Below are positions 26,588-55,584 of a stretch of 64,000 nt of DNA, one piece after another. Position 1 is the stretch's first letter. Every line of letters begins with the position of its first letter. Under the pieces are notes generated by a model. That model saw only the letters and a list, made by a program, of their open reading frames with translations, did not search any database and had not been told where the DNA came from. A program made the translations under genes and the position numbers. Origin of the DNA: a virus (Duplodnaviria; Caudoviricetes); the IMG/VR virus record IMGVR_UViG_3300028364_000013; one strand, written 5' to 3'.

Positions 26588-29500
26588 TTATATATCTAAT
26601 CCAGATTCAATGTCAATCATTACATTAGTTCCTTGAGCCACTGCTGCACCTGCCGCAACTGATGCTGCCGTAGGTTTATCAATAGGTATTCCAAGCTTAT
26701 CTGGAAGCCCGTACCACTTAGAGCCTTTTCTGCTATCATATTGAAATTGCGCTTTCCCTGGTCTATATTCCCAGTGCCATTCTTCAGAAGTCACAGTTCT
26801 TACGAACCCAAACTTATAAGCATTTAAAACAAGCCATTCATAAATAGGCATTATAACACCTCCAAATTTAGCACCCTTACAGTTGAGGTCAATTGCAAGT
26901 CCTGAATTGTGATTAGAATATCCTGGACGTGCTGTTGCTGGGTCGAAATTACCAGAACTTGCAGTTCTTAGATAATTATCATCATTCTTTTTGTTTTTAT
27001 TTATTACGTTCTGTTTTCTTAAATTATACTGAGCAGTAGATATAAACCTTCCATTACCATCTATAACATTATTAAAAGGGTCTCTATACCCACTACTAAG
27101 ATGTAAGTCAATTCCATCTGCTACCGCAGCTATTTGCATAGCTTTATATGCAGACAATATCTGAGCGGTTAATGGATATTTGTCAAAAATATATAATTGT
27201 TCAGAACCGATAACAGCACCACCCGACCATAGGTCTCTAACCCCAAGAGAAGTATCATAAGAAGATGTCAATTCATTCAATGGTAATTTTGGCACAGAAA
27301 GAGCCACTGGTCCTCCTGAATTTCCATTTACAAATTCTTGACCAAGATAATCTGCTGCATTTGCAGAGAAACTACCAGTCACAGCAACAAGAGCTTCTGT
27401 AAAGTTCTTTAAAGCATCTCTTGCAGCTTGGTCAAACCCTTGAGGAATAGCAAGAGGAGCTTCTGATTCTCCAAGCGCCCTAAATGTATCAAGCGTTACT
27501 GGCTTAATAGAACCATATCCACTACCAGGAGAGAATCTCATTCTAATCCCCTCTAAAGATGTGTCCATATTATTTGGTGATATAGAGTGCTTAACTTTCA
27601 TAACTTGATAAAGGCCTCCAAACAATGGAGAATTTTCAAGGAAGAAAAATTGCATTGGATAAACTTGAGAATTACCAAGAACATCAATAGTCGCTTTGTA
27701 TGAACGACCAGCAAGAACAGGAAGCATTGAACAGTCTGTTGTTACTTTTTTGTTCTGATTTTCATTGTCAACCAACCTTTGAAGGTTGACGATGCTTTCG
27801 GCAGTAACTTTATTATCTTCAGTTCCAACTGATATGTTTTTTACGATTTGATTATCTGGATGACCATACTTAATAACATATGAACCAACATTGTAGGCTT
27901 TTTGCTTATCACTAAAAGCAATTGAAGTTCCGTCAGCATTCTTTGTCTTAGTCCTTGATTCTGGGGTTGGAGTAAATAATACGTGAAAGAAATTTCTAAC
28001 CTGAAGATTTGCAAGTTTTGAGCTTGGGCTCCAAATGTTAGCAACATCCAAGTATCCTGGATTTCCAGGAATTGGAATAAATAAAAAGTTATTCTTGGAA
28101 CACACCTGTTGTATTATATTCAAAATACTTGTATTAGCATTTGGCTTATAAAGCGGTTCTAAATTTATAATAGAATCTCTTACAACAATTGGCTCCCCTG
28201 GATTGTTAATCCTTTGCATAGGATAATCATATACAAAAGTTCCGTTTGGAACTCCTTGAGCGCTTTGTGAACTTCCTATGTTTACAGAAACCTGGTCTGT
28301 TCCTGGTGGAAATAGTTCAACTAAATCTTCTGCAGTAGCATCTGTACCCTCAGCATATTCTTCTTTAGTTACCCAAACTTTTTCATCCCTTAAAAGGTCT
28401 ACGTGATTATCTCCAAACCTTGCCTCAAGAGCTTCAGCTACATTAAACACCTTAGCTTTGGCATCATCCCCTTCTGCCCCCTTGTGTTCATCAACATCTC
28501 CACATAAAGCTCCGTTGCTATCTATGTTATCGCTATAGGATAGCGACTGCCATTGATGGAACAATACGTGCATTTGCTTATAAATAGCAGCCTCGCTATC
28601 TCCAGCCTTACCTAATACTTCTCCAATAATTTGATTTCTCTTATCAATAATGTCATCCAACTTCTGAAGAAGAACGTCACACGCCTTTCTAACAAAAGCT
28701 CTATGATTTCTCCCACTTTGACTTGGGCTAAAAATTCCAAATACAAGACCAGAATCTGGGTCAGTACCACTATGTGCCGCAATTGTATACCCTATGTTTC
28801 CAGTGTAATCAACACCGTCTTGATTTGTTGTTTGGTTTGGGTTATCTTGCGGATTTTCTTTAATAGAATTATTCCATTTAATATTTGTTGCCGCAAAAAG
28901 CGTAACCAAAGGGTCTTTAGAGCCGAAAAAACCTGGAGCTGGGTCTTTCATCTCATCAAAATCAACTACATTTCCAGCTCTACTTTGAGTCGTACCATCT
29001 CTATATCCCACAAGAGACCCTATTCTGTTAAGTATAAACTTAGGAGAGTTATCTAAAGCAGTAGTTTTATCTCCCTCATCTCCGTATTTAGCATTAATAG
29101 GGACATATCCAAGCGGTTCATTTTGACCAGCATCAGTAATGTCTTTATCTGAATTTTTAAACTCACCATCTGTTGGTGCAGAATTAGCCTCTTGAGCTCT
29201 TTTGTTGTCTTCTCCTCTAAAAAACACAGCCATGTATTCATTGCCATTTGATGTCGGGAATGTATAGCCAATTCTATTATTTACTATTCTTGTTGCTGTA
29301 TATTTACTGTCAACAAAAGATAGTGGATTTTGAGCATTTCTAATTCCAGAAGGAGAAAGACTTTTAGCGTCAGACAGCGAATTACTTTGATTGTTTGCTA
29401 AATTTTGAGCTTCGTTTTGAACTGCCTGTATTTGGTCTTCTCTTTTAGACTCTTCTTCCTCATAAGTATTAAATACAAGATTTCCATTTACAAGAGTCAC

Positions 29501-31609
29501 ATTATCTCCTAAAAAAACCTCAGGAACAGCAAGCTCTCCCCATATCTGCTTGAATGTGAGTGTCTCATATCCAAGAGCTGCATTCTCTTCTTTTGTTCTT
29601 AATTGTATCTCATCATCTTCGCTGGCTTCAAAAGCGTCTAAAACATTAGGAAACCCATCATCTCCAGCAGGGTCTGAAGGGCTTTGTAAAACTACTTGCC
29701 AATCATCTGGGCTTTGGTTTCCAAAATAACTCATTCCAGACCCAAGAAATGCTGTTGTAGCTGCTGCATCTGCAAACCCAAATCCTCCTGGAACTATTTG
29801 AAGGCCTGAATCCCCATTTGGATGCGCCATTGATGCTGCGTCTTGAGTAAATGCGTTGGACATAAAAAGGCAATACCTTCTTAATAATAAAAAATCAACA
29901 TCAGAAAGGTTTCCAAGTATTGAATCAGTTATGTTCTGAATATCCCTCTCTGCAAGCTCTTCAATTGACGAAACATCATCTCTATCAACTTTCCAAATAT
30001 CTCCACCAAAATCTCCTGGTAAATTTGGGTCACTACTTCTTGTCATATAAGCAACAATGCCACCCCTAACAAGTATGTTTGATGCTATGTTTGGATAATA
30101 TGATTTATAAGGATTTGAGGATGACATTTCAATGTTATTAATCCTTTGCTTGAGTGCTGCATCATCTTGTCCAGACTGAGCGTTATTTACAAGCAAATCT
30201 TTTGCAATACCCTCACTAATAGCAATGATAAAATTTTTTACAAACTCCATTTCGTGTTCGTCAACACCAATTTCAACACCGTCAGCACCTTGTGCTCCTT
30301 CTAAATTCTTCTTTGTTGCTGGAAGTTCATCTCCATCATCATTCAAAACCAAAGGAAATGATTCTCCAATAAGAATTTGCTTATTTACTAACAACTCATC
30401 TCTGGCCGCTTGTCTGTCACTACTCCCTCTGTATCCATCAAGTCCAGCATCAAGAATACTTCCCATTAAAAAGGCAGAATCTTTTGCTATTTGTGAAAAT
30501 ATTTCTCCTATAGTAATTTTCTCAAGCTTCTTTTCTGATGAAGCAAAAACTCTCCTTTTTATTTCATCATCAATCTTTTGAAGATTGTCTGATATAAGAC
30601 CGAGAGTTTGAGTCTTAGCTGAATCAATTGGAATTCTAAGCGTAGGATTATTAAACGCCTTATTAAATGAAGCGAAATTACTTGTTACAACACCAAACCT
30701 CGTAAATCCATTAACATTTACTCCGTTTGCATTTATCTTAAGAGATAATAACAAATAAGTATTTAATGCATTTAAGGTTGTTGCCTCTTTAAGCTTGCTC
30801 TCAATAAGTGGTATTGAATTTACGTCATCTCCAAAATCAGCTATATTAGGAATTGTAATAGTTTGAAATCCTACTACCGACTGATTGTTTACAGAGCCAA
30901 TAACTTCTTCTCCAGGTTCTAAAATATTTGTAACAGTAAGAGCTCTACCTAAGTTAGACTTCATGCTACCCAGTTTCTTAACCAGGTCATCAAACTCTTT
31001 TGTTGTATCCTGTGTTTTAACCTCAACCTGCTTACCTATTTTAATAAGGTCAAAGATGCTTGTTACAGCATCATCATTTCCTGGTCCAAGCCTATCTTTT
31101 CTTAATCTTTTTGCTGCAAGCAAATATAAGAAAGGTAAATCAGCAAAGAATCCCCATTGATTTGGTACAAACTCGCATTTAACGTCATAAGAGCCATCGC
31201 TTCCATTAAATGAAGTAGATGTCCTCTTTAGGTTAAGTAACCACGTAGACGGCTCCCCAAGGTATCCCTTGTAGGAAAATAAGAACTTTGGTGGTGGCCA
31301 GTTGAATAATACAGAATAGTCAATAGAAACATTGCTATCTGTTGGATGCCTGTCTTGACCTCCGAAAATAGTTTGACCATACAAATCTTTAAACACAATT
31401 GTTACAAGAGGTTGTAGTGAAGTGTTAATCTCAATATCAATTGATGTGATACCAAAACCAACGCTTTGTCTGAAGAATTCTGCACTAAACAGTTTTCTTC
31501 CAAGAAAATCAAACGTACTCCCTCCAACGCAAGCTTCAAGCCTAACGTCAATAAAGAGGTCTTTCATACGAAAACCATCTGGCTGTGGATTTACTGGTGC
31601 TCTTCCCAT
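26588..31609 (-). CDS. Large baseplate hub / tail-associated protein with C-terminal M15 (VanY-like) peptidase
   Basis: 1673 aa in the tail cluster; N-terminal GITSIDIE..QPLVTIVFKDLYG; C-terminal SGYRD...Q, ARPGYSNHNSGLAIDL, WLVLNAYKFGFVRTVTSEEWHWEY. Confidence 0.78.
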   Translation of the reverse strand: MGRAPVNPQPDGFRMKDLFIDVRLEACVGGSTFDFLGRKLFSAEFFRQSVGFGITSIDIEINTSLQPLVTIVFKDLYGQTIFGGQDRHPTDSNVSIDYSVLFNWPPPKFLFSYKGYLGEPSTWLLNLKRTSTSFNGSDGSYDVKCEFVPNQWGFFADLPFLYLLAAKRLRKDRLGPGNDDAVTSIFDLIKIGKQVEVKTQDTTKEFDDLVKKLGSMKSNLGRALTVTNILEPGEEVIGSVNNQSVVGFQTITIPNIADFGDDVNSIPLIESKLKEATTLNALNTYLLLSLKINANGVNVNGFTRFGVVTSNFASFNKAFNNPTLRIPIDSAKTQTLGLISDNLQKIDDEIKRRVFASSEKKLEKITIGEIFSQIAKDSAFLMGSILDAGLDGYRGSSDRQAARDELLVNKQILIGESFPLVLNDDGDELPATKKNLEGAQGADGVEIGVDEHEMEFVKNFIIAISEGIAKDLLVNNAQSGQDDAALKQRINNIEMSSSNPYKSYYPNIASNILVRGGIVAYMTRSSDPNLPGDFGGDIWKVDRDDVSSIEELAERDIQNITDSILGNLSDVDFLLLRRYCLFMSNAFTQDAASMAHPNGDSGLQIVPGGFGFADAAATTAFLGSGMSYFGNQSPDDWQVVLQSPSDPAGDDGFPNVLDAFEASEDDEIQLRTKEENAALGYETLTFKQIWGELAVPEVFLGDNVTLVNGNLVFNTYEEEESKREDQIQAVQNEAQNLANNQSNSLSDAKSLSPSGIRNAQNPLSFVDSKYTATRIVNNRIGYTFPTSNGNEYMAVFFRGEDNKRAQEANSAPTDGEFKNSDKDITDAGQNEPLGYVPINAKYGDEGDKTTALDNSPKFILNRIGSLVGYRDGTTQSRAGNVVDFDEMKDPAPGFFGSKDPLVTLFAATNIKWNNSIKENPQDNPNQTTNQDGVDYTGNIGYTIAAHSGTDPDSGLVFGIFSPSQSGRNHRAFVRKACDVLLQKLDDIIDKRNQIIGEVLGKAGDSEAAIYKQMHVLFHQWQSLSYSDNIDSNGALCGDVDEHKGAEGDDAKAKVFNVAEALEARFGDNHVDLLRDEKVWVTKEEYAEGTDATAEDLVELFPPGTDQVSVNIGSSQSAQGVPNGTFVYDYPMQRINNPGEPIVVRDSIINLEPLYKPNANTSILNIIQQVCSKNNFLFIPIPGNPGYLDVANIWSPSSKLANLQVRNFFHVLFTPTPESRTKTKNADGTSIAFSDKQKAYNVGSYVIKYGHPDNQIVKNISVGTEDNKVTAESIVNLQRLVDNENQNKKVTTDCSMLPVLAGRSYKATIDVLGNSQVYPMQFFFLENSPLFGGLYQVMKVKHSISPNNMDTSLEGIRMRFSPGSGYGSIKPVTLDTFRALGESEAPLAIPQGFDQAARDALKNFTEALVAVTGSFSANAADYLGQEFVNGNSGGPVALSVPKLPLNELTSSYDTSLGVRDLWSGGAVIGSEQLYIFDKYPLTAQILSAYKAMQIAAVADGIDLHLSSGYRDPFNNVIDGNGRFISTAQYNLRKQNVINKNKKNDDNYLRTASSGNFDPATARPGYSNHNSGLAIDLNCKGAKFGGVIMPIYEWLVLNAYKFGFVRTVTSEEWHWEYRPGKAQFQYDSRKGSKWYGLPDKLGIPIDKPTAASVAAGAAVAQGTNVMIDIESGLDI

Positions 31610-41963: not shown

Positions 41964-43037
41964 TTATCTACTCTTTGACTTTGATTTAGCTGCTCTGTGC
42001 GCTTTTTCTTCAGCTTCTTTTTTCTTAGTAAGCTCTTCGTTAATTCTATTTAGCAACCATCGCCTTTCTGTAACTGGCATTTTCTTTGCACTCTCATGAC
42101 TAATTCCTTTTCCATAATATGAAACAAGAAAACACTCTTCTTGAACGTTTTCTCTAAATGTTGGCGGAAATGCAAGGAAGCTATGTGTTCCCCCAAAGTT
42201 TATCGCATTCTCTTTACCGCAAGAACCACACCTATGCTTAATAACAGTGTCTACTCCTGGAGTTGCTTTTTCAACAAACTTCTTAACTCTCCTTATTTGA
42301 GGAATAGTAAGCTTTCTGCACACTTGAGATATAACCATTTTGTCTTCGCAGTCATTTATTGAATGTGTCATGTAAATTAACTTATCCAAACTACTTAGAT
42401 TTGCTTTTTCCATCCCAACTTCTTCAAAGTAAGTAAGCGGCTTAAACATAAATATAAGCTCAGTGTCAGCCAGCAACATTGGTATTAGACCATTCTCTGG
42501 AGGAGCGACTATATCTTTCATCTGAAATGATGACAACCTAATTGGAACTTCCTCTTCAAAGCTGCAGTGATGACAATTAAGTTCAAGCTCAAGAGTGTCG
42601 CCATAAGCATATGAACGCAAGAACAACCCAATAGCTTGAACGTCTCCAGCTAATAAATCTTTTGGGTCTATATTTTGCTCCACAAGAATATTCTTAAGAA
42701 CAAACTCCATTGCCTTTCCAGACTCCACAAGGAACTCGCTGGTGAGAAGATTTTCCTCAACGTAAGTCAATTGATTTAAAAGAAGGTGGTTTTCTTTGCT
42801 TGGATAAAAAAGGCCTCTTGAGGGTATGAATAACATCTCAAAAGGCCTCTCTATATTTTTGTCTTTTTTCTCTTGTTGAATTAGAGCTGAAAGATTTCTT
42901 ACTTCATCTGTGTTCTCACTAAACTTTTGCTTCAGTTCATCAAGAGAAACTAAAATGTTAGTATCCTTATTTTTTTCTACAACCTCTTTTAAATCATCAA
43001 TTGACTTTATTACCTTATCTTGATGATTCTCTGACAT
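41964..43037 (-). CDS. T4 gp26-like baseplate/tail assembly protein, paralogue B with C-terminal extension
   Basis: IPSRGLFYP, LTYVEENLL, CxxC...CxxC; extension EECFLVSYYGKGISHESAKKMPVTERRWLL. Confidence 0.7.
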   Translation of the reverse strand: MSENHQDKVIKSIDDLKEVVEKNKDTNILVSLDELKQKFSENTDEVRNLSALIQQEKKDKNIERPFEMLFIPSRGLFYPSKENHLLLNQLTYVEENLLTSEFLVESGKAMEFVLKNILVEQNIDPKDLLAGDVQAIGLFLRSYAYGDTLELELNCHHCSFEEEVPIRLSSFQMKDIVAPPENGLIPMLLADTELIFMFKPLTYFEEVGMEKANLSSLDKLIYMTHSINDCEDKMVISQVCRKLTIPQIRRVKKFVEKATPGVDTVIKHRCGSCGKENAINFGGTHSFLAFPPTFRENVQEECFLVSYYGKGISHESAKKMPVTERRWLLNRINEELTKKKEAEEKAHRAAKSKSKSR

Positions 43038-43038
43038 A

Positions 43039-43968
43039 TTAATCTAAGTCTGGGTAGAACAATTTAGGAGTAATTGGAATATCTTTAATATCTAATTCTC
43101 CGCACACTGGACACTCGAACTCATAAGAAAGGTCTAATCCTGGCTCAATTCTTCTTACGTATTCTCTAAAGAATCCAGAATCCTTCATTGGCATTGCAGC
43201 GATAAACTTTTTAATATAAAGCTTATCTCTATTTCCATTTACTTCCATTATTTGCATAATGTACTTTTCAGTTACAAGCTTAGAAACTCTAATTCCACCA
43301 CTTTTTCCACCTTTTACTTCAGAAAGTTTTGCTAACCTTTTTTCATCAGTTCCAGTAAGCAATCTAAATCTTATTCTCATTTTCATAAGAGGAAGTTCTA
43401 CTTCGTATTCTCCATCTGAGTCTGGCATAATCTCAAGAGGCTTTGATTTAAGCTTAGAAAGATTAATTGTTGGCTCATGCACTTGTCCACAAGAAGGGCA
43501 AGTAATTTCTCCTGGAACATAATCGTTTCCAAGTCCAGTCTTTCTTATTTCAACAAGAAGAAAGTTTCTGTCACCAGAAAGCATGCTTTCAGGTCTAAGG
43601 TCTTTATCCATAACAGCTTTGTCAAGAAGTACATCTAATACTTTTCCTGACTTAATAAGGTCTGGAGAATAAAGAATATCATCTTCCTCTGCTGTAAGAT
43701 ACTTAATTGTAACTGTTTTTTTACCATTTGCATAGAATGCTCCACCTGATGGTAATTCTACCTCTTCGGTTGGAACTTGAAATTCCATGTCAAGATATTC
43801 ATCTGGGATATTGTGCTCCTTAGCAACTTCTTGCTTTTTTTCAATTGGAGCTTGCTCGTTTTGATTTGTTGGAATGTTTGTTCCAGCAGTTTCTCTTCCT
43901 GGAATTTCTTTCCCTGAAGGTTGTGTGTTGGAGTTAGTTCCTCCTAATCTTATTTGGTCATCGGCCAT
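43039..43968 (-). CDS. T4 gp26-like baseplate/tail assembly protein, paralogue A
   Basis: VELPSGGAFY, YLTAEEDDIL, CPSCG, IRFRLLTGTDE, FECPVCG, PITPKLFYP. Confidence 0.75.
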   Translation of the reverse strand: MADDQIRLGGTNSNTQPSGKEIPGRETAGTNIPTNQNEQAPIEKKQEVAKEHNIPDEYLDMEFQVPTEEVELPSGGAFYANGKKTVTIKYLTAEEDDILYSPDLIKSGKVLDVLLDKAVMDKDLRPESMLSGDRNFLLVEIRKTGLGNDYVPGEITCPSCGQVHEPTINLSKLKSKPLEIMPDSDGEYEVELPLMKMRIRFRLLTGTDEKRLAKLSEVKGGKSGGIRVSKLVTEKYIMQIMEVNGNRDKLYIKKFIAAMPMKDSGFFREYVRRIEPGLDLSYEFECPVCGELDIKDIPITPKLFYPDLD

Positions 43969-44048: not shown

Positions 44049-44408
44049 TTAGATTTGAGGGCTCGTTTGTGACTGACCATCAGTTTGAGTTTGTATCTGA
44101 CTTTGCATTTGAGAAAACTTGACAGCATTTATTTCTGACTGCTTAGACATATCAAGCTCTTTCTTTTTCATTTCAAGCCTATCTTTTACAACTTTAGCCT
44201 GAGCAACTCTCGCATCTCTCTCGTCTCTTGGTAATCCAGAAACTCTTGAGTCAGCTTCTCTATATTTAAGTTCAATCTCAAGGTCTTTAATATATTCCTC
44301 ATCAGATTTAATCATATCCTGACTTAGTTGCATTGGGTCTTCTTCCCCTATTTCCATCATAACCTTGTAGACTTCCTCTTTGATTATTTCTCTTAGTTGC
44401 TTATTCAT
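44049..44408 (-). CDS. Hypothetical coiled-coil protein with Glu-rich leader
   Basis: MNKQLREIIKEEVYKVMMEIGEE. Confidence 0.75.
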   Translation of the reverse strand: MNKQLREIIKEEVYKVMMEIGEEDPMQLSQDMIKSDEEYIKDLEIELKYREADSRVSGLPRDERDARVAQAKVVKDRLEMKKKELDMSKQSEINAVKFSQMQSQIQTQTDGQSQTSPQI

Positions 44409-44880
44409 CTTTCAATAATTTTTTAAATCTCTTCCTTTGTGTTTTGTAATCATTATTAAGGTCATGCTCCCACACTCTCTCAATACTAAAACCATTTCCC
44501 TTTGCAAGTACGTCTTTAAACTTGTCGTTCTTTACGTTTCTAATTTGCATTTTATTCAAATCCTTTGACTCGTATATTAATGGGTTTGCGTGATAATAAT
44601 CCCCATCAACCTCAACCATCATATTCTTTGATGGTATGTAAAAGTCATATATCTTGTTTCCAAGAACTTTTTGTGTTTCAAATTTAATGTCAAGCTCTTC
44701 CATCATATCAGAAAAAATTCTCTCAGGAGCCGTCATTTTATTTGCCATTTTCTTGGCTTGTGACTCCAGTTTCTTTTTTTTCATCAACTTAGCAGCTTCA
44801 GGGCTTGCTTCCCTTCTGGCTTTTGCCATCGCCTTCTTGACCATTTGAGCATATGTCAACTTCTTTCTTTTCTTAGCCAT
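44401..44880 (-). CDS. DUF559/Vsr-like PD-(D/E)XK nuclease with basic N-terminus
   Basis: IYDFYIPSKNMMVEVDGDYYH, RVWEHD. Confidence 0.78.
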   Translation of the reverse strand: MAKKRKKLTYAQMVKKAMAKARREASPEAAKLMKKKKLESQAKKMANKMTAPERIFSDMMEELDIKFETQKVLGNKIYDFYIPSKNMMVEVDGDYYHANPLIYESKDLNKMQIRNVKNDKFKDVLAKGNGFSIERVWEHDLNNDYKTQRKRFKKLLKDE

Positions 44881-45674: not shown

Positions 45675-45794
45675 GCGTATAACTTTATTATAAATATGAA
45701 ATAAAAAGGTGTTCAATTACTAAAAAACGTATTTTATGCAAAAAAAAACCATATTTACATAAAAGGAACAAAACTCTTTAAACACAACAGCACA

Positions 45795-45971
45795 ATGGAA
45801 ATAATGGACACAGATTTTGATGATAATGCAAAATTAATCATAAAAGAATTGACTGAGGCTAACGAAAACTTTGAAAAAGTTATCAAAAAATTACAACAGG
45901 CCAGAAACAAATTTATAAAAAAACACGAACCCATAGAAGCCTTAAAAACAAGTATTAAAAACAAAAGCTAA
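45795..45971 (+). CDS. Small coiled-coil protein (58 aa; not in the ORF track)
   Basis: Own translation MEIMDTDFDDNAKLIIKELTEANENFEKVIKKLQQARNKF...; stop overlaps next ATG (TAATG). Confidence 0.6.
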   Translation: MEIMDTDFDDNAKLIIKELTEANENFEKVIKKLQQARNKFIKKHEPIEALKTSIKNKS

Positions 45972-46495
45972 TGAATTCTGATGAAAATAAAGACATAAAA
46001 GGAAAATTAGACAGCGGACTAAATAGCCCAAAAAGCCTGAAAGCTTTAACTGAAAAACTAAACAACAGAGATAAAGATTTAGAAGAAGAAAGAGAAGTTT
46101 ATAAATTCTTAGCAGAAAATTCTAACGATGGCTATTGGGACTGGAAAATGGATAAAGACATACCTTTTGAAGAGCAATATGAATATATGTCTCCAAGATT
46201 TTGGGAAATATTTGGATACTCGCCAGAAGAAAAAGAACACAAAGTTAAAGCGTGGATGGACATGATTAACAAAGAAGATGGAGAGGCTGCTGTAGAAAAT
46301 CTTAATAAGCACATAAAATCAAAAGGAAAAACGCCTTATAAACAAACAGTAAGGTACACACATAAAGACGGAAGTACGGTTTGGGTACTTTGCAAGGGAG
46401 CGGTTGTAAAATGGAACGAAGATGGTAGTGCATCAAGAATGATTGGCACTCACACTGACGTTACTGAAATAATGAATTCAAAAAACAATAAGTAA
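45971..46495 (+). CDS. Stand-alone PAS/PAC domain protein
   Basis: FLAENSNDGYWDW, YMSPRFWEIFGYSPEE, WMDMINKED, RYTHKDGSTVWVLCKG, DGSASRMIGTHTDVT. Confidence 0.9.
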   Translation: MNSDENKDIKGKLDSGLNSPKSLKALTEKLNNRDKDLEEEREVYKFLAENSNDGYWDWKMDKDIPFEEQYEYMSPRFWEIFGYSPEEKEHKVKAWMDMINKEDGEAAVENLNKHIKSKGKTPYKQTVRYTHKDGSTVWVLCKGAVVKWNEDGSASRMIGTHTDVTEIMNSKNNK

Positions 46496-46923
46496 TGGCA
46501 GAAAAAGATGAAAACCAAGGGTGGAAAGAATGGTCTAACCACGTCCTTAAAGAACTTGAGCGTTTGAATAGCAACTATGAAAACCTTAAAGATGAAGTTA
46601 TTAAAACAAATCAAGAATTAGTTAAGACTTCTGGAATGAGGTACGCTCTTAATGAACTTAAAGAATGGAAGAAGGATGTCGAAAAAGTTGTTAATGAGAC
46701 AGACCTCAAGGAAATGAAAAAAAGTGTTGCAGAAATTAAGACAAACACAGAAAATATTGAGAAAAATAAAGGCAAAATAACAGAAGTTGACAAAGAAAAA
46801 GATGCCAACAAAAAAGACATTGATGACCTTAGAACTTTTAAAACAAAAGTAGTTACGGCTGGAGTCATTTCTTTTTTCATTCTAACTACAGCAATTACTA
46901 TTCTTGGTTGGTATCTGTCTTAG
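46495..46923 (+). CDS. Coiled-coil protein with a single C-terminal TM helix (holin/XhlA-like topology)
   Basis: Heptad-rich body; VVTAGVISFFILTTAITILGWYLS at the C-terminus. Confidence 0.65.
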   Translation: MAEKDENQGWKEWSNHVLKELERLNSNYENLKDEVIKTNQELVKTSGMRYALNELKEWKKDVEKVVNETDLKEMKKSVAEIKTNTENIEKNKGKITEVDKEKDANKKDIDDLRTFKTKVVTAGVISFFILTTAITILGWYLS

Positions 46924-48444: not shown

Positions 48445-48882
48445 TTATTCACCCTTTTCTAAAAATGATATATCAAGAGTCCATTTTTTCTTACTTCTTT
48501 CTTCCCAAATATTAAACACTTCCTCAATATAATCATCTGCCTGCTTATCAGTTAAACAATTTATTTTCATCATATGTGCTTTAATTTCTTTTTCTTTTCC
48601 AGAAATTCTTGCATATCCAAAATGCTTTGTAGAATGACAATTTGGACAAAGCGCAATTAATCCCTTAAGAGTCTGCTCACAAGACTCATCATCATAATTC
48701 CAAATTTCGTGACACTCCACGGGATGCTTCGGGCCCTTACCGCTGCAAACTTCACATTTATATTCTGCTTTCTTATAGCAGTCTTTTCTAAGGACATCCC
48801 ACTCTGCTTGTGATACATTGGAGCGCACGTTATTATAAAAAGAAGATGCAGGCACAAGTTCTATAGTTAAAATCATAATCAA
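48445..48882 (-). CDS. HNH-like endonuclease
   Basis: CEVCSG...VECHEIWNYD...LIALCPNCHSTKHFG. Confidence 0.78.
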   Translation of the reverse strand: MIMILTIELVPASSFYNNVRSNVSQAEWDVLRKDCYKKAEYKCEVCSGKGPKHPVECHEIWNYDDESCEQTLKGLIALCPNCHSTKHFGYARISGKEKEIKAHMMKINCLTDKQADDYIEEVFNIWEERSKKKWTLDISFLEKGE

Positions 48883-49847
48883 TTAAATTTATCCCATTTA
48901 TGTGTACAAATAAACTTATTTTCCTTAATAAATCCAATTAAATAATCAATAACAATTGGATTATATATTCTAAGTCTAAAATAGGAATCTTTTTGTTTTA
49001 AAGCTTTTTTACTCAAAGTTACATTAAAAATATCTTCTAAGCGTTTTATCCAATATTTTAATATTAACTTCCAATTTTCATGAGAAGTAATAGTTATACA
49101 TCTCGAATTTTTCTTGCTTAAATATAAACTACCATCTCCATCAATGAATCCTATTAAAAAACTTAAAAAATTTTCATCTGACATTTTATTAAAAACACTC
49201 AAAGAAGGCGGGAAATATGTTTTAGTTTTTTCTCCCTTTTTATAATTTATATCATACTTTTTATTTATCAAAGGAATTACTTTTGAATCTTTTAAATAAC
49301 ATATAGCGCTCCCATTACTAACTGTATCAACTCCTAATATATTTACTTTTTTCACTTCATCGTATAGTTTAATATTTTTACAACCAATATAATTAGCAAA
49401 ACCAATAACAACTTCCTTATTTTTCATACACTGATTCAGTTGTATCTTTTTATTTGTAAAATATCCATCAGCAAATAATAGACCTATGTAATAATATGTT
49501 TTAACACTCTCATTCAATAGAATTTCAACATTAGAGTCTCTCATTGTTGAATATTGGTATTCTGCTCTTTTTAATTTTAATTTTTTAGCTTTTGCTAAAA
49601 TAGAGCTCCAACTTCTGTTTTCCAAAAGTTTCAATAATTTTTCAGAAGAAGAGTTTGAATAGTATTTTATTATAATATTCTCTTCCATTTCTGACCATAA
49701 ATTTTCTTCTGTTATTCCAAGTGCTTTTTTTCTATTTTTTACAGAGGGAATTGTTCTTCCAACTAATTCAGCTAAATACTTAATTGGAGATTCTATATTG
49801 TTTTTTAAAATAAAATCCTCCTGCTCTGTCCATCTTTTGTTTTTCAT
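48879..49847 (-). mobile_element. Free-standing LAGLIDADG homing endonuclease gene
   Basis: YYIGLLFADGYF and FLIGFIDGDGSL; N-terminal WTxxED repeats. Confidence 0.85.
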
Positions 49848-49909
49848 ATTACATGTATTTTATTATAAATACATGAAAATTTTTAAACCAAGCCGTCTGT
49901 GGTACTAAT

Positions 49910-52249
49910 TCAATTGTTAGCTTCATCTTCTTTTTTACTTAAATCTTTATCAACTCGAACGATTCTCGTTCCTCTCTTAAAATTAACATAACCTTTTTCG
50001 TTCTTTTCAAACTCAGCAACATAAATGCCATTGGCAGCAAGGAGTGGTTGTAGAGATTTCGCAACTGGGTCGAAAGCTCTAAGTGTTGTGAAACTAATTC
50101 CATCACCAACTCTCATTGTTAAATATTCTTTTCCATTCTTACTCATAGAAACCTTAAAGGTATCTACCACAAAAATGTAGAAATCATTATCATCAAAATT
50201 AATAATTGTCTCAACAAGCTTATCTCTCTTAGCTCTCTTGTTTACATCAGCCTTTATGTCCTGAATGTACTTTATTTTTTCAAGGTCAAAATTACACACC
50301 TCAAGGAAATCTGTTCTTTTCGATGCCCAGTTTGTTGGAGGATATTTGTTCTCTTCTTTTTTAACTGGAATGTCAAAAGCTTCGTCATTCATATCAAACA
50401 AAACAGTTTGATTTGCGTTTACTTTCTTTTTCTTTTTTGTCTTAGACTTAAGGTCAGCAAGCTGTTCTCTTGAATCGCTCCAATCATCAAATACGCCAGC
50501 TTTAAGGCAAGCTTCAAAAGCACTTTTATTAAACTTGCTAAACGGCAATCTAAAGAACAAACTCATACTCACAGTCTCAAGGGTTTTTTTCTCCTGACCT
50601 TCTTTGACTTTTATTTCTTTAATCAAATCAAGCATCTCTTCGTATGCAATTGGGCCCAATCCGTTAATACCAGAGAATCCCATAGAAATTTCGTGCTCAC
50701 CAGTCATTGTCCATCTCCATCCAGACTTTCTTGATGGCATCTTTATCTCAATCCCTTTTGACATCGCAGAAGCAATTGCAGAACCAATCCAAGCTTGCTG
50801 TTTTTCTTTGTTACCAGACTTAGGGTGATTTAGAAGGGCGGTATAAAACTCGGTTGGGTAGTAGTGTTTTAAATACAAAGTTTGCATCGCCAAATAACTA
50901 TATGAAAGTGCATGAGACTTATTGAATGAGTATCCAAGGTATTGAATTACCCAATCTTTAATTTTATCTACATCACCTTTGTCATAACCTTGAGCTGCAG
51001 CCCCATCTAAGAACATGTTCCAATACTGCTGGAAACCTTTCCAGTTCTTGTCGTTTTTCTCTGTATCAGTTAGCGTCTCTCCCGCTGAATTTCTTGCAAT
51101 AATTTTAGATGCCTTATCCATATACCTTCTAAGCATATCTCCTTTACCAAGACCCATTCCACCAATCTTATCAGCAATAAACATAAGTTGTTCCTGAAAC
51201 ACAAGTACTCCATTCGTTTCTCCAAGAATCGGCTTCAACGCAGGGTGGATATATTTAATCTTCTCTGGGTTGAATTTGTTTACGATAAACTCTTCGTGTG
51301 CGCCAATTCCCATTGGGCCTGGACGATACAGTGCGTTGGCAGCAACAAGTTCTTCAAATTTATCAACTGCAATACCTCTAATAAGATTGTTCATACCATG
51401 ACTCTCAAACTGAAATATCCCATGATTAAGACCAAGCCTTAATTCTGTAAATAACTTTGGGTCTTCAAGGTCAACGTAATCAACTTTTTGAGAAATATCT
51501 TCTCCCGTTGTTCTTTTTACAATGTCAACAGTTTCCTTAATTACATTTAAGGTTTCTAATTTTAATCTATCCAATTTTAGAATCCCAAGTGCTGAAAGGT
51601 CTTTTCCAGACTTATCCGCCTCCTGAAACGCTGTAACAACACTTCCGTTGGATGTGATTACATTGGTTGGAATATAATCCCAAGATAACCCTGGTGTAAT
51701 TACAACTCCTGCAGCATGCTGTCCAATACCTCTAATGTTTCCATGAAGCTGGAGAGCAGTCTCAATCATCTCCTTATTTTTTGGCTCTCTAATCCAATTT
51801 CTAACTTCTGGACTACACTCTGGTTTATCTGGCCAAGTTTCAAACCAATGCCTAAGAGTGTCGTTGTAATTTAAGAAGTTCGGCATCTCCTTTGTTAATT
51901 TAAACACTCCAGAATCAAACCCAGTAGCATCGCTTCCACGATATGCACGAACAACATCCTTAATTGTATTCTTCTCAGAAAATGTAGAAAAAGTAGCAAC
52001 AGACATAACACGTTCTTTTCCATACTTGTCTTGTAGGAATTGATTTGTTACATCATCTGTACCTGTCATAAAATCAATATCAATATCGGGAGGAGAATTG
52101 TGAATTAAAACACTTGAAATCAATGAGTTATAGCAATCATCTAAAGTTTTACTTGAACTGTAAAAAAGATTATCTTTATCAAAAGATAAATCATAAACCT
52201 TATTTTTATAATCAATTTTATTTATTGATTTTATTTTTGATAATCTCAT
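49910..52249 (-). CDS. dnaE: DNA polymerase III alpha, C-terminal fragment led by a split-intein C half
   Basis: IntC ending LIHN then SPPDIDIDF, HAAGVVI, GIFQFES, LYRPGP, YSFNKSHA. Confidence 0.93.
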   Translation of the reverse strand: MRLSKIKSINKIDYKNKVYDLSFDKDNLFYSSSKTLDDCYNSLISSVLIHNSPPDIDIDFMTGTDDVTNQFLQDKYGKERVMSVATFSTFSEKNTIKDVVRAYRGSDATGFDSGVFKLTKEMPNFLNYNDTLRHWFETWPDKPECSPEVRNWIREPKNKEMIETALQLHGNIRGIGQHAAGVVITPGLSWDYIPTNVITSNGSVVTAFQEADKSGKDLSALGILKLDRLKLETLNVIKETVDIVKRTTGEDISQKVDYVDLEDPKLFTELRLGLNHGIFQFESHGMNNLIRGIAVDKFEELVAANALYRPGPMGIGAHEEFIVNKFNPEKIKYIHPALKPILGETNGVLVFQEQLMFIADKIGGMGLGKGDMLRRYMDKASKIIARNSAGETLTDTEKNDKNWKGFQQYWNMFLDGAAAQGYDKGDVDKIKDWVIQYLGYSFNKSHALSYSYLAMQTLYLKHYYPTEFYTALLNHPKSGNKEKQQAWIGSAIASAMSKGIEIKMPSRKSGWRWTMTGEHEISMGFSGINGLGPIAYEEMLDLIKEIKVKEGQEKKTLETVSMSLFFRLPFSKFNKSAFEACLKAGVFDDWSDSREQLADLKSKTKKKKKVNANQTVLFDMNDEAFDIPVKKEENKYPPTNWASKRTDFLEVCNFDLEKIKYIQDIKADVNKRAKRDKLVETIINFDDNDFYIFVVDTFKVSMSKNGKEYLTMRVGDGISFTTLRAFDPVAKSLQPLLAANGIYVAEFEKNEKGYVNFKRGTRIVRVDKDLSKKEDEANN
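52097..52249 (-). mobile_element. Split intein C-terminal half (51 aa)
   Basis: MRLSKIKSINKIDYKNKVYDLSF...SSVLIHN followed by Ser+1. Confidence 0.85.
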
Positions 52250-53325
52250 AATTTACTTGCTTCTATTTGACTTTTTATATATACTAAAACATTTTCTTTA
52301 TTATCCTTCCAGTCTTTTTCCCAAATTTCTATATAACTACAATTAATAACACTTATAATTTCATTCTTTCTTTTTCTATCATCTCTCCAAATCTCAGATG
52401 CCAATCTTTTTTTGTTTTTATGATAAAAATCATGACTATAAATCATTGGATTACAATGCCAATAATCACCCATAATTTCAATAGCTATATTGTGTTCATT
52501 ATTATAATAATCAAGTTTATAAAATTTACTTTTGTTTACAATTAAAACTTTTTGACCAAATTCAGAATTATAATGATAAGAATCGTTTAATCCTAAATTT
52601 TGTAATTCTAAAATAATTTCCCTCTCCAAGTTAGAGGATTCTCCTAAGTTTTTATTTGTTTTTTTAGCATTTTCCATTTGCCACTCTTTATCCATAAACA
52701 AATTATCTACTCCAAACTTATCCTGCATAGTCATTGTTACAGCTGAATAATGACAACCACGCTCCAAGAACCAACTCACACCATACCTATCATCCATGGT
52801 CTTAGAAATCTTATCCTTAATCTTCTTATATTGAATTGGTGCCTTAAGACCAGTTGTTCCAAGATTTTTATTCAAAGACTTTTCATATTGACTTCTATAC
52901 TCTTTAGTCTTATAATAAAGTGATTTATAATCTTTCTCAGATAATACGTGTCCATTAGACCAGAATTTAATACCCTTTCTTGATGGGTGTAGGTCTATTA
53001 GCTCATCTTTCTCGGAAAACTTATTGTACATTTTAACCTTTGACTCAGTTAATGAATAATCCTGGTTTCCACACTTAATAAGAACAGCACTGTGTCCTCT
53101 TGGTCCTTTTCCAAAATAGCAATCTTCAACAATTCCGATAAAACTTTCTTTATTGTACAATTCTTTTCCAATTAAATTTTCAATAGAAACCGATAATTTA
53201 CTTTTATATGGCCATATTTCTATTTCGTTATTATCAGCTTTTTTAAAGTCAAAAAACTCACACAACCCAGCAACTAAATCACTCTGACCATCGAACTCAA
53301 TATTTAACAACTCTTCTTTTTTCAT
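52246..53325 (-). mobile_element. Free-standing PD-(D/E)XK-type endonuclease gene between the split-intein halves
   Basis: TMDDRYGVSWF/TMQDKFGVDN repeats, YKLDYYNNEHNIAIEIMGDYWHCNP, EIWEKDW; start MKKEELL at 53325 after TATTTATA. Confidence 0.75.
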
Positions 53326-53382
53326 AATTATAAAATCTGTATCTATAAATATAGATAAAAACTTCAAACGATATTTGTATTT

Positions 53383-55584
53383 TTAAAACACAAACAATTG
53401 GTCGCTCTCCATAATACCATCTACACGAACTTCAATTCTCTCGCCATCCCTAAAAACAGGAACAATATGGCACCCAGTCAACTCAACTATAGCTCCATCT
53501 TCAGTTTCAATTTCATAAACATTCTCGTTTTCCTTAAGCTCTCTCTCGTGCTTTTGAACCAAGGTTCCAAGTCCGTGTTCTGTCTGAACTGGGTCTCCAA
53601 CCTCTACTTCAACGATGTTCTTATAAGAGCCATCTTTCATCATGACATTGCAGTTTGATGTTAAACAGTTTCTTTCTGGATTTAGGAAACGCTCAAAATA
53701 AAGATTAAACCTTATTGGGTCAATCTTTGTAATATCAAGACACCACGACAATAGACTTCCTGCTGCAGAACCTCTGGCTGGGCCAATGTCATGACCTTCG
53801 TTTCTGTAGAAATTAATAATCTCCCAGTTTACAAGAAAGTAATCAAGCATCTTCTTTGATTCAATAATACTAATCTCATAATTAAGACGGTCAACATACT
53901 CATTAACCTTTTCATCGGTCATCTCAACGATTCCATTTTTCTTATATATCTCAACTTTTTGCTTTAACTTAATAAACGCAAGTTTTACAATAATCTCCTC
54001 TGGCTTATCTGTGCCAAAATATTCTATTATTTTTTCAGTTGGCTCATATCTTGGATATTTCTCAGTACCAGTATCAAATTCAAAATTACACCTATCAGCT
54101 ATAATGTTTGTATTTTTCATACAAAGTTCAAGAAACTTTTCAGGATACTTAAATCCATACTTTTCGTTCATTTCTCTATAGTCATCGCTATTGAAGTAGT
54201 ATAACTCTCTGTTTTCTTTCAGAGAACAATAGGCAAGCATACGATGTTGCTTAATAGATGTAACTACATCTTGAAGCTTTGAATCCTCTCTTCTTGGATA
54301 GTAGGTGTCATTGCTCATTACTGGAAGCAATTTATACTTACTCATCATTTTAATCAAGAAGTTGTTATACTGCTTCTGAGTGGCGAACTTACTAAACTTA
54401 AACTCCACTATCAAATCTTCTCCAAACTCGCTCCTAAGCATGTTAAGATAGTTCTCTGCGTCAATAACCTTTCCTTTAAGAACCAGGTTTGCTAATTTAC
54501 TATCAAGACCTGAGGTAGATATTATTAAACCCTCTTTATATTTCAAAAGCCACTCTGTAGTTATTCTTGATTCTTTCTTAAATAACCCCTCTGTGTTTGC
54601 GAGGTATATCAAATGATTCAGATTTCTATATCCAATTTCATTTTTTATGAAAATCTTTATTTTATAATTATCTCCCTCAAGCTCTCTGTCTTCAAATTTT
54701 CCAATATTGTCATTCAAGAAAGACTCGACACCAAAAACTGGTTTAATCCCTTTTGACTTACATTTATTGAAGAATTCAAATGAACCAGATAATGTTGAGT
54801 TATCTGTTATTGCCATTGAGGTGTGGCCATACTCTTTTGCAAGCTTAATATACTCGTCTACAGAACCAGCTCCATCAAGAATAGAGTGAAATGTATGGAG
54901 ACCAAGTGGAGTTACTCGGATTGAATCGCCCGCTTGCATAGGTTTCTCTTCTGCAACTTTAGTAAGAGAATCCATTAAATCTTCTGCGCCCTCTTCTTCT
55001 TTGAATCCAAGGATGCCTATTCTTTGAAGTTCGAAAAAACATTTTGCAAGCGCAGTAACATCCGCAAGTGCATCGTGAGCATCTTCGAATCCTTTGTCAA
55101 ATAATTTTTGGTGAAGTTCTGTTTGAGAAGGAAATTTCATCCCACTCCTACCTCTTTTGTTTGGAATTGCCACGAAGTCAGTTGTGAGCTTCATGGTGTC
55201 AATGTGATTTATGTCTGGAATGCAGTTGTACATTCCCTCTCTAAGGAATTCACAGCCTGTTACATTTTCATCAAAGGAAATGTTGTGAGCAATAAGATGC
55301 TTATTGTTCTTTACAGCTTCTGAAAACTTTTCAAGCGCCTGCCTCAAAGGAACTCCATCCTCTTTAGCTCTCTCGTTTGTAATCCTATGAATCGCTATTG
55401 CTTCATCAGGAATCCTAAACCCTTGAGGTTTAATAATTAAATTCTGAGAATCTGTCTCTACACCATTCGCATCAAAGATTTTCCAAGCAATCTGAACCAT
55501 TCTTGGCCAGTTGTTAAAATCAGTAATTGGTGCGCTAAAATTCTTTGCCTTACCAGTTGTTTCGGTATCAAATACTATATACAT
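53383..55584 (-). CDS. dnaE: DNA polymerase III alpha, N-terminal fragment (DEDDh exonuclease + PHP + polymerase start) ending in a split-intein N half
   Basis: MYIVFDTETTG...HDALADV, LHTFHS, GPARGSAAGSLL, LYFERFLNPERN then CLT. Confidence 0.93.
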   Translation of the reverse strand: MYIVFDTETTGKAKNFSAPITDFNNWPRMVQIAWKIFDANGVETDSQNLIIKPQGFRIPDEAIAIHRITNERAKEDGVPLRQALEKFSEAVKNNKHLIAHNISFDENVTGCEFLREGMYNCIPDINHIDTMKLTTDFVAIPNKRGRSGMKFPSQTELHQKLFDKGFEDAHDALADVTALAKCFFELQRIGILGFKEEEGAEDLMDSLTKVAEEKPMQAGDSIRVTPLGLHTFHSILDGAGSVDEYIKLAKEYGHTSMAITDNSTLSGSFEFFNKCKSKGIKPVFGVESFLNDNIGKFEDRELEGDNYKIKIFIKNEIGYRNLNHLIYLANTEGLFKKESRITTEWLLKYKEGLIISTSGLDSKLANLVLKGKVIDAENYLNMLRSEFGEDLIVEFKFSKFATQKQYNNFLIKMMSKYKLLPVMSNDTYYPRREDSKLQDVVTSIKQHRMLAYCSLKENRELYYFNSDDYREMNEKYGFKYPEKFLELCMKNTNIIADRCNFEFDTGTEKYPRYEPTEKIIEYFGTDKPEEIIVKLAFIKLKQKVEIYKKNGIVEMTDEKVNEYVDRLNYEISIIESKKMLDYFLVNWEIINFYRNEGHDIGPARGSAAGSLLSWCLDITKIDPIRFNLYFERFLNPERNCLTSNCNVMMKDGSYKNIVEVEVGDPVQTEHGLGTLVQKHERELKENENVYEIETEDGAIVELTGCHIVPVFRDGERIEVRVDGIMESDQLFVF
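53386..53667 (-). mobile_element. Split intein N-terminal half (94 aa)
   Basis: CLTSNCNVMMKDGSYKNIVEVEVGD (block A) and VYEIETEDGAIVELTGCHIV (block B TxxH). Confidence 0.88.

Follow-up and report, generated by a model that had tools for sequence, protein, structure and literature searches.

A stretch of viral DNA 64,000 nucleotides long (Duplodnaviria; Caudoviricetes), taken from the IMG/VR record IMGVR_UViG_3300028364_000013 and referred to here, at its full length, as ‘the window’, carries a cassette of three overlapping open reading frames (ORFs) on its plus strand, at positions 45795–46923. ORF1 encodes a small helical protein, ORF2 a stand-alone PAS domain, and ORF3 an all-helical protein with a C-terminal transmembrane segment. 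Our principal finding is that ORF3 belongs to an unnamed family of phage proteins whose genes are mostly preceded, immediately, by the gene for a small partner. The conserved unit appears from these comparisons to be this pair, upstream partner plus ORF3-type membrane gene, and not the trio. The C-terminal part of the partner is interchangeable: some partners have none, and others end in a PAS domain, a cupin or a domain of a different kind. Of the explanations considered we favour, with a little less than even confidence, that ORF3 is a lysis-associated membrane protein resembling XhlA in the way it works, and that it is regulated by swappable cytoplasmic partners. Loci other than the window are designated ‘L’, followed by a number.

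The ORF3 family

ORF3 (46495–46923, plus strand) encodes 142 residues, and its structural model consists of two long helices (residues 3–65 and 68–141). A Kyte–Doolittle scan and the alignment of relatives place the transmembrane segment at residues 118–142 (46846–46920, plus strand), behind a conserved juxtamembrane motif, L-x-T-F-K-T. An earlier, sequence-only reading of this DNA had described a coiled-coil protein with one C-terminal transmembrane helix, and the helical model and hydrophobic segment agree with that description. Near the N-terminus, residues 10–25 (46522–46569, plus strand) read W-K-E-W-S-N-H-V-L-K-E-L-E-R-L-N and lie over the invariant columns of the family, the consensus of which is W-x-E-W-S-x-H-V-L-K-E-L-E-R-L-N. 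W10, W13, S14, H16, V17, L18 and E20–N25 do not vary at all in an alignment of 30 diverse members.

The family is a sizeable one, with 39 close cluster matches and 117 representative clusters at 50% identity; 22 of its loci are in IMG/VR and 73 in metagenomes. Members follow one layout: the N-terminal motif, a coiled coil of variable length, L-K-T-F-K-T, and the C-terminal transmembrane segment. Two subtypes can be told apart, a long type of 105–150 residues, to which ORF3 of the window belongs, and a short type of 69–88 residues with a glycine-rich transmembrane segment. Both tryptophans and the string HVLKELER are invariant in 17 short-type members. Their N-terminal domains are homologous by hhalign (probability 99.5%, E 1e-22), and the short-type profile matches ORF3 of the window at E 6e-13.

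Profile scans found no Pfam or PHROG family that covers the ORF3 family, which both collections have therefore left unrecognised, and a search of PDB sequences with the ORF3 profile returned coiled-coil noise and nothing else. A scan for the pattern HVLKELERL in one genome for each of some 185,000 prokaryote species returned zero relatives; the family appears, by this distribution, to be confined to phage and metagenome sequence. Fusions of a PAS domain to an ORF3-type protein were absent from the 117 representative matches, and no search aimed at longer forms was made.

The upstream partners

Among 68 distinct members of the family, 56 have an ORF on the same strand that abuts or overlaps them from upstream. 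The motif L-x-x-L-[KR]-x-[LM]-T-x-x-L occurs within the first 70 residues of 37 of these 56 partners and of 1.2% of 1,442 background ORFs, a difference that overstates the independence of the cases because the loci are related to one another. The partners are of several classes: ‘helix-only’ (18 partners, 57–87 residues), PAS (15), cupin-type (six), ORF1-type (about six), and an unknown domain of the L011 type (five). Pfam searches of 15 partners recognised PAS in nine and Cupin_2 in two (Cupin_1 and Cupin_6 in one each). Helix-only and PAS partners have an N-terminal motif in common (hhalign E 7.6e-5, probability 62%). In ORF2 this is L-K-A-L-T-E-K-L (residues 23–30; 46037–46060, plus strand), where the long helix ahead of the PAS domain begins, and it aligns with the motif of the other partners.

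The pairing of a PAS gene with an ORF3-type gene recurs in unrelated phage contexts (L002, L007, L040, L048, L050, L068, L090, L022, L025 and L027). Co-conservation across phages holds for the pair; it fails for the trio, since the nearest relatives of the window have ORF1 and ORF3, but no PAS gene.

A separate observation concerns the membrane motif, which reads E-R-Q-N rather than E-R-L-N in L025, L027, L094 and L102. The partners of L025 and L027 have I-R-x-M-T in place of L-[KR]-x-L-T, and those of L094 and L102 are truncated or lack the motif. The two motifs may covary, in what is one lineage only.

ORF2, a stand-alone PAS protein

ORF2 (45971–46495, plus strand) encodes 174 residues, of which residues 72–161 match PAS_3 (PF08447) with 78.3 bits (cut-off, 25.6 bits) and E 5.3e-22. 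The Pfam scan of ORF2 reported PAS families alone, and no further domain. In the AlphaFold2 model (pLDDT 88.9) a helix, residues 20–50, leads into the PAS core, which Pfam, the model and Foldseek together place at residues 54–163 (46130–46459, plus strand). The nearest solved structure is 3mr0, the PAS domain of a Burkholderia sensor kinase (24% identity; Foldseek E 2e-10, TM-score 0.78 by target), followed by many LOV and PAS chains, including short LOV proteins. Neither HisKA nor HATPase_c, nor remnants of them, were detected in ORF2 by Pfam, and the next gene, ORF3, has no similarity to kinases. ORF2 is thus a sensor-type domain that stands alone, without enzymatic output, as the sequence-only reading had it. 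That reading also spoke of a light or redox ligand, for which we found nothing in support: the LOV flavin–cysteine motif G-X-N-C-R-F-L-Q does not occur in the translation of ORF2, where the equivalent region is S-P-R-F-W-E-I-F-G-Y.

A PAS domain by itself could be the decaying, functionless fragment of a host sensor kinase captured by the phage. ORF2 has no output domain, and the PAS gene is absent from the closest relatives, both of which would fit. The domain is complete, nevertheless, and confidently folded in the AlphaFold2 model, and comparison with homologues (dN 0.28, with saturated dS; dN and dS being the non-synonymous and synonymous divergence) points to purifying selection. Stand-alone PAS genes of 136–190 residues are kept, moreover, on many phage contigs, and ORF2 fits precisely between the stop codon before it and the start codon after it. 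We consider a decaying fragment extremely improbable, and regard it as refuted.

Also improbable, if not to that degree, is that the PAS protein acts on two-component signalling in the host or the phage, as a decoy or a modulator, without any part for ORF3. Cellular PAS-containing proteins, some of them with HisKA, are 45–52% identical to ORF2, and in a 656-kb phage a homologue with 58% identity has a phage-encoded histidine kinase and response regulator as neighbours. The decoy for host two-component systems suggested by the sequence-only reading goes without support. Against it, many unrelated phages have PAS-type partners that carry the common N-terminal helix and abut an ORF3 homologue, and the stop codon of ORF2 overlaps the start codon of ORF3, which is consistent with translational coupling. 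Because cupin or helix-only partners can take the position of the PAS protein, it is ORF3 that the loci have in common, rather than kinase signalling.

The contig that matches the 656-kb ‘uncultured marine phage’ (L003) is of some interest in itself. Between its positions 2693 and 5498 the PAS gene is divergent from genes for a membrane histidine kinase (HATPase_c), a response-regulator receiver, and a coiled-coil protein with multiple transmembrane segments, a group that looks like a phage-encoded two-component system.

ORF1 and the history of the cassette

ORF1 (45795–45971, plus strand) encodes a helical protein of 58 residues, and is kept directly upstream of ORF3 in L004, L009, L010, L031 and L032. 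By eye it reads I-K-E-L-T-E-A-N, and its relatives I-K-E-L-I-E. Membership of ORF1 in the partner-helix family was considered, and rejected: hhalign of ORF1 with the helix-only partners gave a probability of 0.4%, and no detectable homology. ORF1 is the positional equivalent of the partner genes only.

The nearest relatives of the window (L004–L006 and L008–L010) have ORF1, a spacer of 5–6 bp, and ORF3, without a PAS gene and with flanking genes identical in kind. ORF3 is 67–73% identical to its homologues in these loci (73% in L004). In the DNA alignment with the relatives, the PAS gene is a clean indel of 524 bp bounded by the sequence TAATG at both ends. ORF2 has its nearest relatives in another phage lineage: the PAS genes of L002, a T4-like contig, share 68% identity with it. 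L002 carries two PAS genes in tandem, together with an ORF3 homologue, in the interval from portal to prohead protease. Identity of ORF3 to that homologue is no more than 36%. With ORF2 close to L002 and ORF3 distant from it, the PAS partner and the membrane gene must have had separate histories, and partners are therefore exchangeable.

The tandem PAS partner genes of L002 (5001–5973) are 75% identical to each other, with a dN/dS ratio of 0.84; a single ORF3 homologue follows them, within the T4-like block of head genes. These values suggest that the genes were duplicated recently, and that selection on them is relaxed or diversifying.

Position of the cassette in the phage genome

The three ORFs lie on the plus strand with minus-strand genes to either side. 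Both junctions, ORF1/ORF2 and ORF2/ORF3, have the sequence TAATG, in which one A is common to the stop and the start codons. These features, as the ORF coordinates confirm, are those that the sequence-only reading described; its placement of the cassette inside the morphogenesis region is not. To the left are two T4_baseplate genes (41964–43968), a DUF559 endonuclease gene, and an unknown gene for a 278-residue protein. To the right are the genes for RNase H, which is convergent and overlapped by the 3′ end of ORF3 by 26 nt, and for DNA polymerase III (Pol III) alpha. Because baseplate genes lie on one side and replication genes on the other, the cassette marks the border between the baseplate and replication modules.

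Upstream of ORF1 there is a divergent intergenic region (45717–45794, plus strand), conserved with L004 and L009 in the DNA alignment, which is presumably the promoter and leader of the cassette. A scan of sigma-70 promoters and terminators gave site counts not above those of shuffled controls, and so shows no promoter. All three ORFs are real genes, judging by their homologues in other phage contigs and by purifying selection. Against L004 and L009, dN/dS is 0.23 for ORF1 and 0.12–0.21 for ORF3, and for ORF2 the divergence from homologues is that given above.

The record from which the window comes is 81 kb long, and 25% complete by the CheckV estimate. A contig of 364 kb carries the same proteins, and the phage is therefore a jumbo phage. 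Its guanine-plus-cytosine (GC) content is 34.5%. Among isolated phage genomes, blastn found no DNA match and tblastn no match to ORF3. The sole PAS match there, a weak one, is in Pseudomonas phage Y10.

A possible connection to lysis

Lysis enters the argument by way of the short-type proteins. In L023 the gene order is tail fibre, cupin partner, a 70-residue ORF3 homologue, and an M15 endolysin (VanY, 4e-6; phrog_2649, 2e-9), the start of which overlaps the stop of the homologue. L098, from a different lineage (GC content 56%), has a cupin partner, a 70-residue homologue, an endolysin (phrog_465, 4e-27), and a 143-residue product. This last product we take, from reading its sequence, to be the source of the single GTA_holin_3TM match (1e-8) obtained among 55 downstream neighbours. 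Elsewhere, a neighbour in L088 is weakly Holin-X-like, L026 and L092 have small neighbours with two transmembrane segments, and L087 has, as neighbours, two coiled-coil proteins with N-terminal transmembrane segments. Some family members produce weak PHROG matches to holins or hemolysins. Protein-language-model features make XhlA clusters the nearest named clusters (0.91 for the long type and 0.94 for the short type), values that serve as leads only.

XhlA of PBSX resides in the membrane, and is predicted to work in synergy with the holin XhlB. None of the three PBSX genes could be spared in an induced membrane-vesicle assay, matching an earlier report on lysis (PMC5589764); all three are cited elsewhere as essential for lysis (PMC10630273). 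Homology of the ORF3 family to XhlA was entertained and rejected, Pfam and hhalign both being negative. ORF3 has no Pfam match to XhlA (PF10779) at E ≤ 0.1 and no significant match to a holin family. PF10779 was absent from the 25 families listed when 30 family members were scanned at E ≤ 0.05, and a six-frame search for PF10779 in the 81-kb record that holds the window found no match. Comparison of the short type with four XhlA sequences (Enterococcus phage 9181 relatives) gave an hhalign probability of 0.7%. The likeness, then, is one of ‘works like’, and not of family membership. The holin-like partner proposed in the sequence-only reading gains indirect support from L023 and L098, where an endolysin gene directly follows a short ORF3 homologue.

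Several results, in addition to the missing holin-family match, weigh against a role in lysis under the control of a partner. Neighbour scans found no lysis gene adjoining the cassette in the window, or adjoining most long-type members. The downstream neighbours of the long type are mixed: a trypsin-like lipoprotein, a phosphoribosyltransferase (PRTase), a metallophosphatase, a patatin, a nuclease, and unknowns. Two members lie among head genes, L002 between portal and prohead protease and L018 between terminase and portal. The separate holin-family gene in L098 means that proteins of the ORF3 family need not form the hole. The PAS gene is dispensable for the core function because the closest relatives lack it, ORF1 shows no kinship with the helix-only partners, and the PAS homologue of the 656-kb phage has no ORF3 homologue immediately downstream. 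A search of five carrier records for Amidase_2, Phage_lysozyme and Peptidase_M15_4 found the L023 endolysin only; other lysin families were not searched. A lysis regulator can have its gene far away from the lysis cassette, according to a preprint (bioRxiv 10.64898/2026.08.27.747656).

These same neighbourhoods lend themselves to another explanation, namely that ORF3 serves, in the membrane, to tether or recruit components of some process other than lysis (prohead or portal assembly at the membrane, replication anchoring, or sequestration of a conserved host factor by the invariant helix), with the partners modulating that recruitment. Head genes surround the long-type members of L002 and L018, those of the window and L007 are at module borders, and lysis genes are missing from the vicinity of the long type. 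The ORF3 motif is also far more conserved than the partner helix, which fits binding to a third party that is itself conserved, for instance a host protein. Yet short homologues with the same N-terminal domain directly precede endolysins in two lineages, lysis is the only consistent functional neighbourhood to have emerged, and no candidate host target was identified. We think a tether unlikely, while ranking it first among the alternatives.

The pair might, instead, be a moron-like accessory cassette for phage competition, serving in superinfection exclusion or, once the sensor partner triggers it, acting at the membrane as an abortive or anti-defence effector. It is a self-contained unit of two genes, found in many genomic positions and often on the strand opposite to its neighbours, and partner genes are exchanged between lineages. 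A sensor joined to a transmembrane effector is a common architecture of defence systems. However, PADLOC gave no family match at a meaningful level, within a phage clade the pair keeps its position and is under purifying selection, as a core gene would be, and the location of the short types in lysis cassettes points elsewhere. A part in competition seems to us distinctly less probable than a tether, though not as improbable as a decoy.

Proposed mechanism and its significance

In the lysis-associated mechanism that we favour, ORF3 would be the constant component, an inner-membrane protein held by a single C-terminal transmembrane anchor. Its N-terminus would be cytoplasmic, and would present the invariant amphipathic helix at the end of a coiled-coil spacer whose length varies. 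The component that changes would be the small cytoplasmic partner, encoded by the gene that is immediately upstream and that usually overlaps ORF3. The N-terminal helix of the partner would pack on the invariant helix of ORF3, and in doing so control the oligomerization or the activity of ORF3 in the membrane; a PAS domain, where there is one, would make this control depend on an intracellular cue. We infer the physical binding, the topology, the sensing of a ligand, and the lysis role of the long-type protein in the window. The output would most likely be the timing of host lysis or permeabilization of the membrane. ORF3 would serve as a holin accessory, or be holin-like itself, comparable in this to PBSX XhlA; the partner would play the part of a cytoplasmic, antiholin-like regulator, as RIII does in T4. 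In this phage the small partner specific to the clade, ORF1, is retained, and a PAS-type ORF2, closest to the PAS genes of a T4-like lineage, sits precisely between ORF1 and ORF3.

A broader form of this proposal, which we hold more tentatively, is that many uncultured phages possess a plug-in sensor device, in which a tail-anchored effector with an invariant docking helix accepts interchangeable partners that gate lysis or permeabilization on metabolites or redox state. The window would then be a case in which a PAS partner was captured from another phage lineage and joined a resident partner that has no sensor.

The timing of lysis is a major determinant of phage fitness. To our knowledge, the known regulators of lysis timing (antiholins, among them lambda S107 and T4 RI and RIII) answer membrane energization or superinfection, and not small-molecule sensor domains. 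If the lysis reading is true, phages could read the internal state of the host through exchangeable PAS or cupin partners when timing lysis, and these partners would represent a form of ligand-controlled antiholin not described before. Our search of the literature found no paper in which a phage antiholin or XhlA-like protein is tied to a PAS or cupin domain. What is new, conditional on that reading, is a variant of the holin-associated membrane protein with a cytoplasmic regulator. Even without a lysis output, an invariant helix of 16 residues across phages of 35% to 62% GC indicates a strongly constrained interaction.

Other genes in the window

Several other genes in the window, all on the minus strand, deserve mention. 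A 1,673-residue protein (26588–31609) has a C-terminal VanY/M15 peptidase domain, and is probably a virion-associated cell-wall hydrolase rather than the endolysin. The DUF559/Vsr-like endonuclease gene (44401–44880), between the baseplate genes and the gene for the 278-residue protein, occupies the same position in L004–L010. Next to it, positions 44049–44408 encode a 119-residue protein headed by the motif Q-L-R-x-[LI]-I-[KR]-E-E-[VI]. This motif also heads otherwise unrelated proteins of 84–696 residues in marine phage contigs (L013–L015, L045, L046, L051, L059, L063 and L064). It is present in 15 of 1,192 distinct ORFs of all loci, clustered in the marine group, and could be a shared targeting or processing leader. 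Finally, the Pol III alpha gene (48879–55584) looks as though it has been split and invaded. A 779-residue ORF has C-terminal alpha, finger and HHH domains only, ORFs of 373 and 733 residues lie upstream of it, and a LAGLIDADG-like ORF (48879–49847) lies beside it. The equivalent in L004 and L005 is a single RNase_T–PHP–Pol III alpha protein of 1,367 residues.

Comparison with known systems

XhlA (PF10779), of the PBSX xhlA–xhlB–xlyA cassette, is the known protein that ORF3 most calls to mind. Both proteins are small, with a coiled coil towards the N-terminus, cytoplasmic in XhlA and predicted to be so in ORF3, and one transmembrane segment at the C-terminus. The gene for XhlA belongs to a lysis cassette, beside a holin and an endolysin, a setting shared by the short relatives in L023 and L098. 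Unlike XhlA, ORF3 of the window is not beside lysis genes. The ORF3 family, moreover, has no significant sequence or profile similarity to XhlA, which lacks the invariant W-x-E-W-S-x-H-V-L-K-E-L-E-R-L-N motif. We know of no dedicated upstream sensor partner for XhlA.

In T4, the cytoplasmic antiholin RIII acts with the holin T, which has a single transmembrane segment (PMC8385771), and does so at the cytoplasmic region of the holin (PMC12162936). The logic is similar to that proposed here: a soluble cytoplasmic protein sets timing by acting on the cytoplasmic, N-terminal part of a lysis protein with one transmembrane segment, although in our case the binding is a proposal made by analogy. The components differ. 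T has a large periplasmic domain and ORF3 almost none; RIII has no ligand-binding domain, and T4 has, in addition, the periplasmic RI.

Short LOV and stand-alone PAS proteins (e.g. PpSB1-LOV and 3mr0) resemble ORF2 in having a PAS core and flanking helices without a fused effector, and in signalling, presumably, through protein–protein contacts of a flanking helix. ORF2 departs from the short LOV proteins in that it has no LOV flavin–cysteine motif, is encoded by a phage, and is paired with a membrane protein. A more general analogy is with membrane-anchored regulator pairs, such as one-component regulators and those that act by sequestration in the manner of anti-sigma factors. The partners described here have no DNA-binding or sigma-like domain, and because helix-only partners exist, a transcriptional output is unlikely. 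What the two have in common is the arrangement itself: a constant membrane part, and a soluble part whose sensor varies with the lineage.

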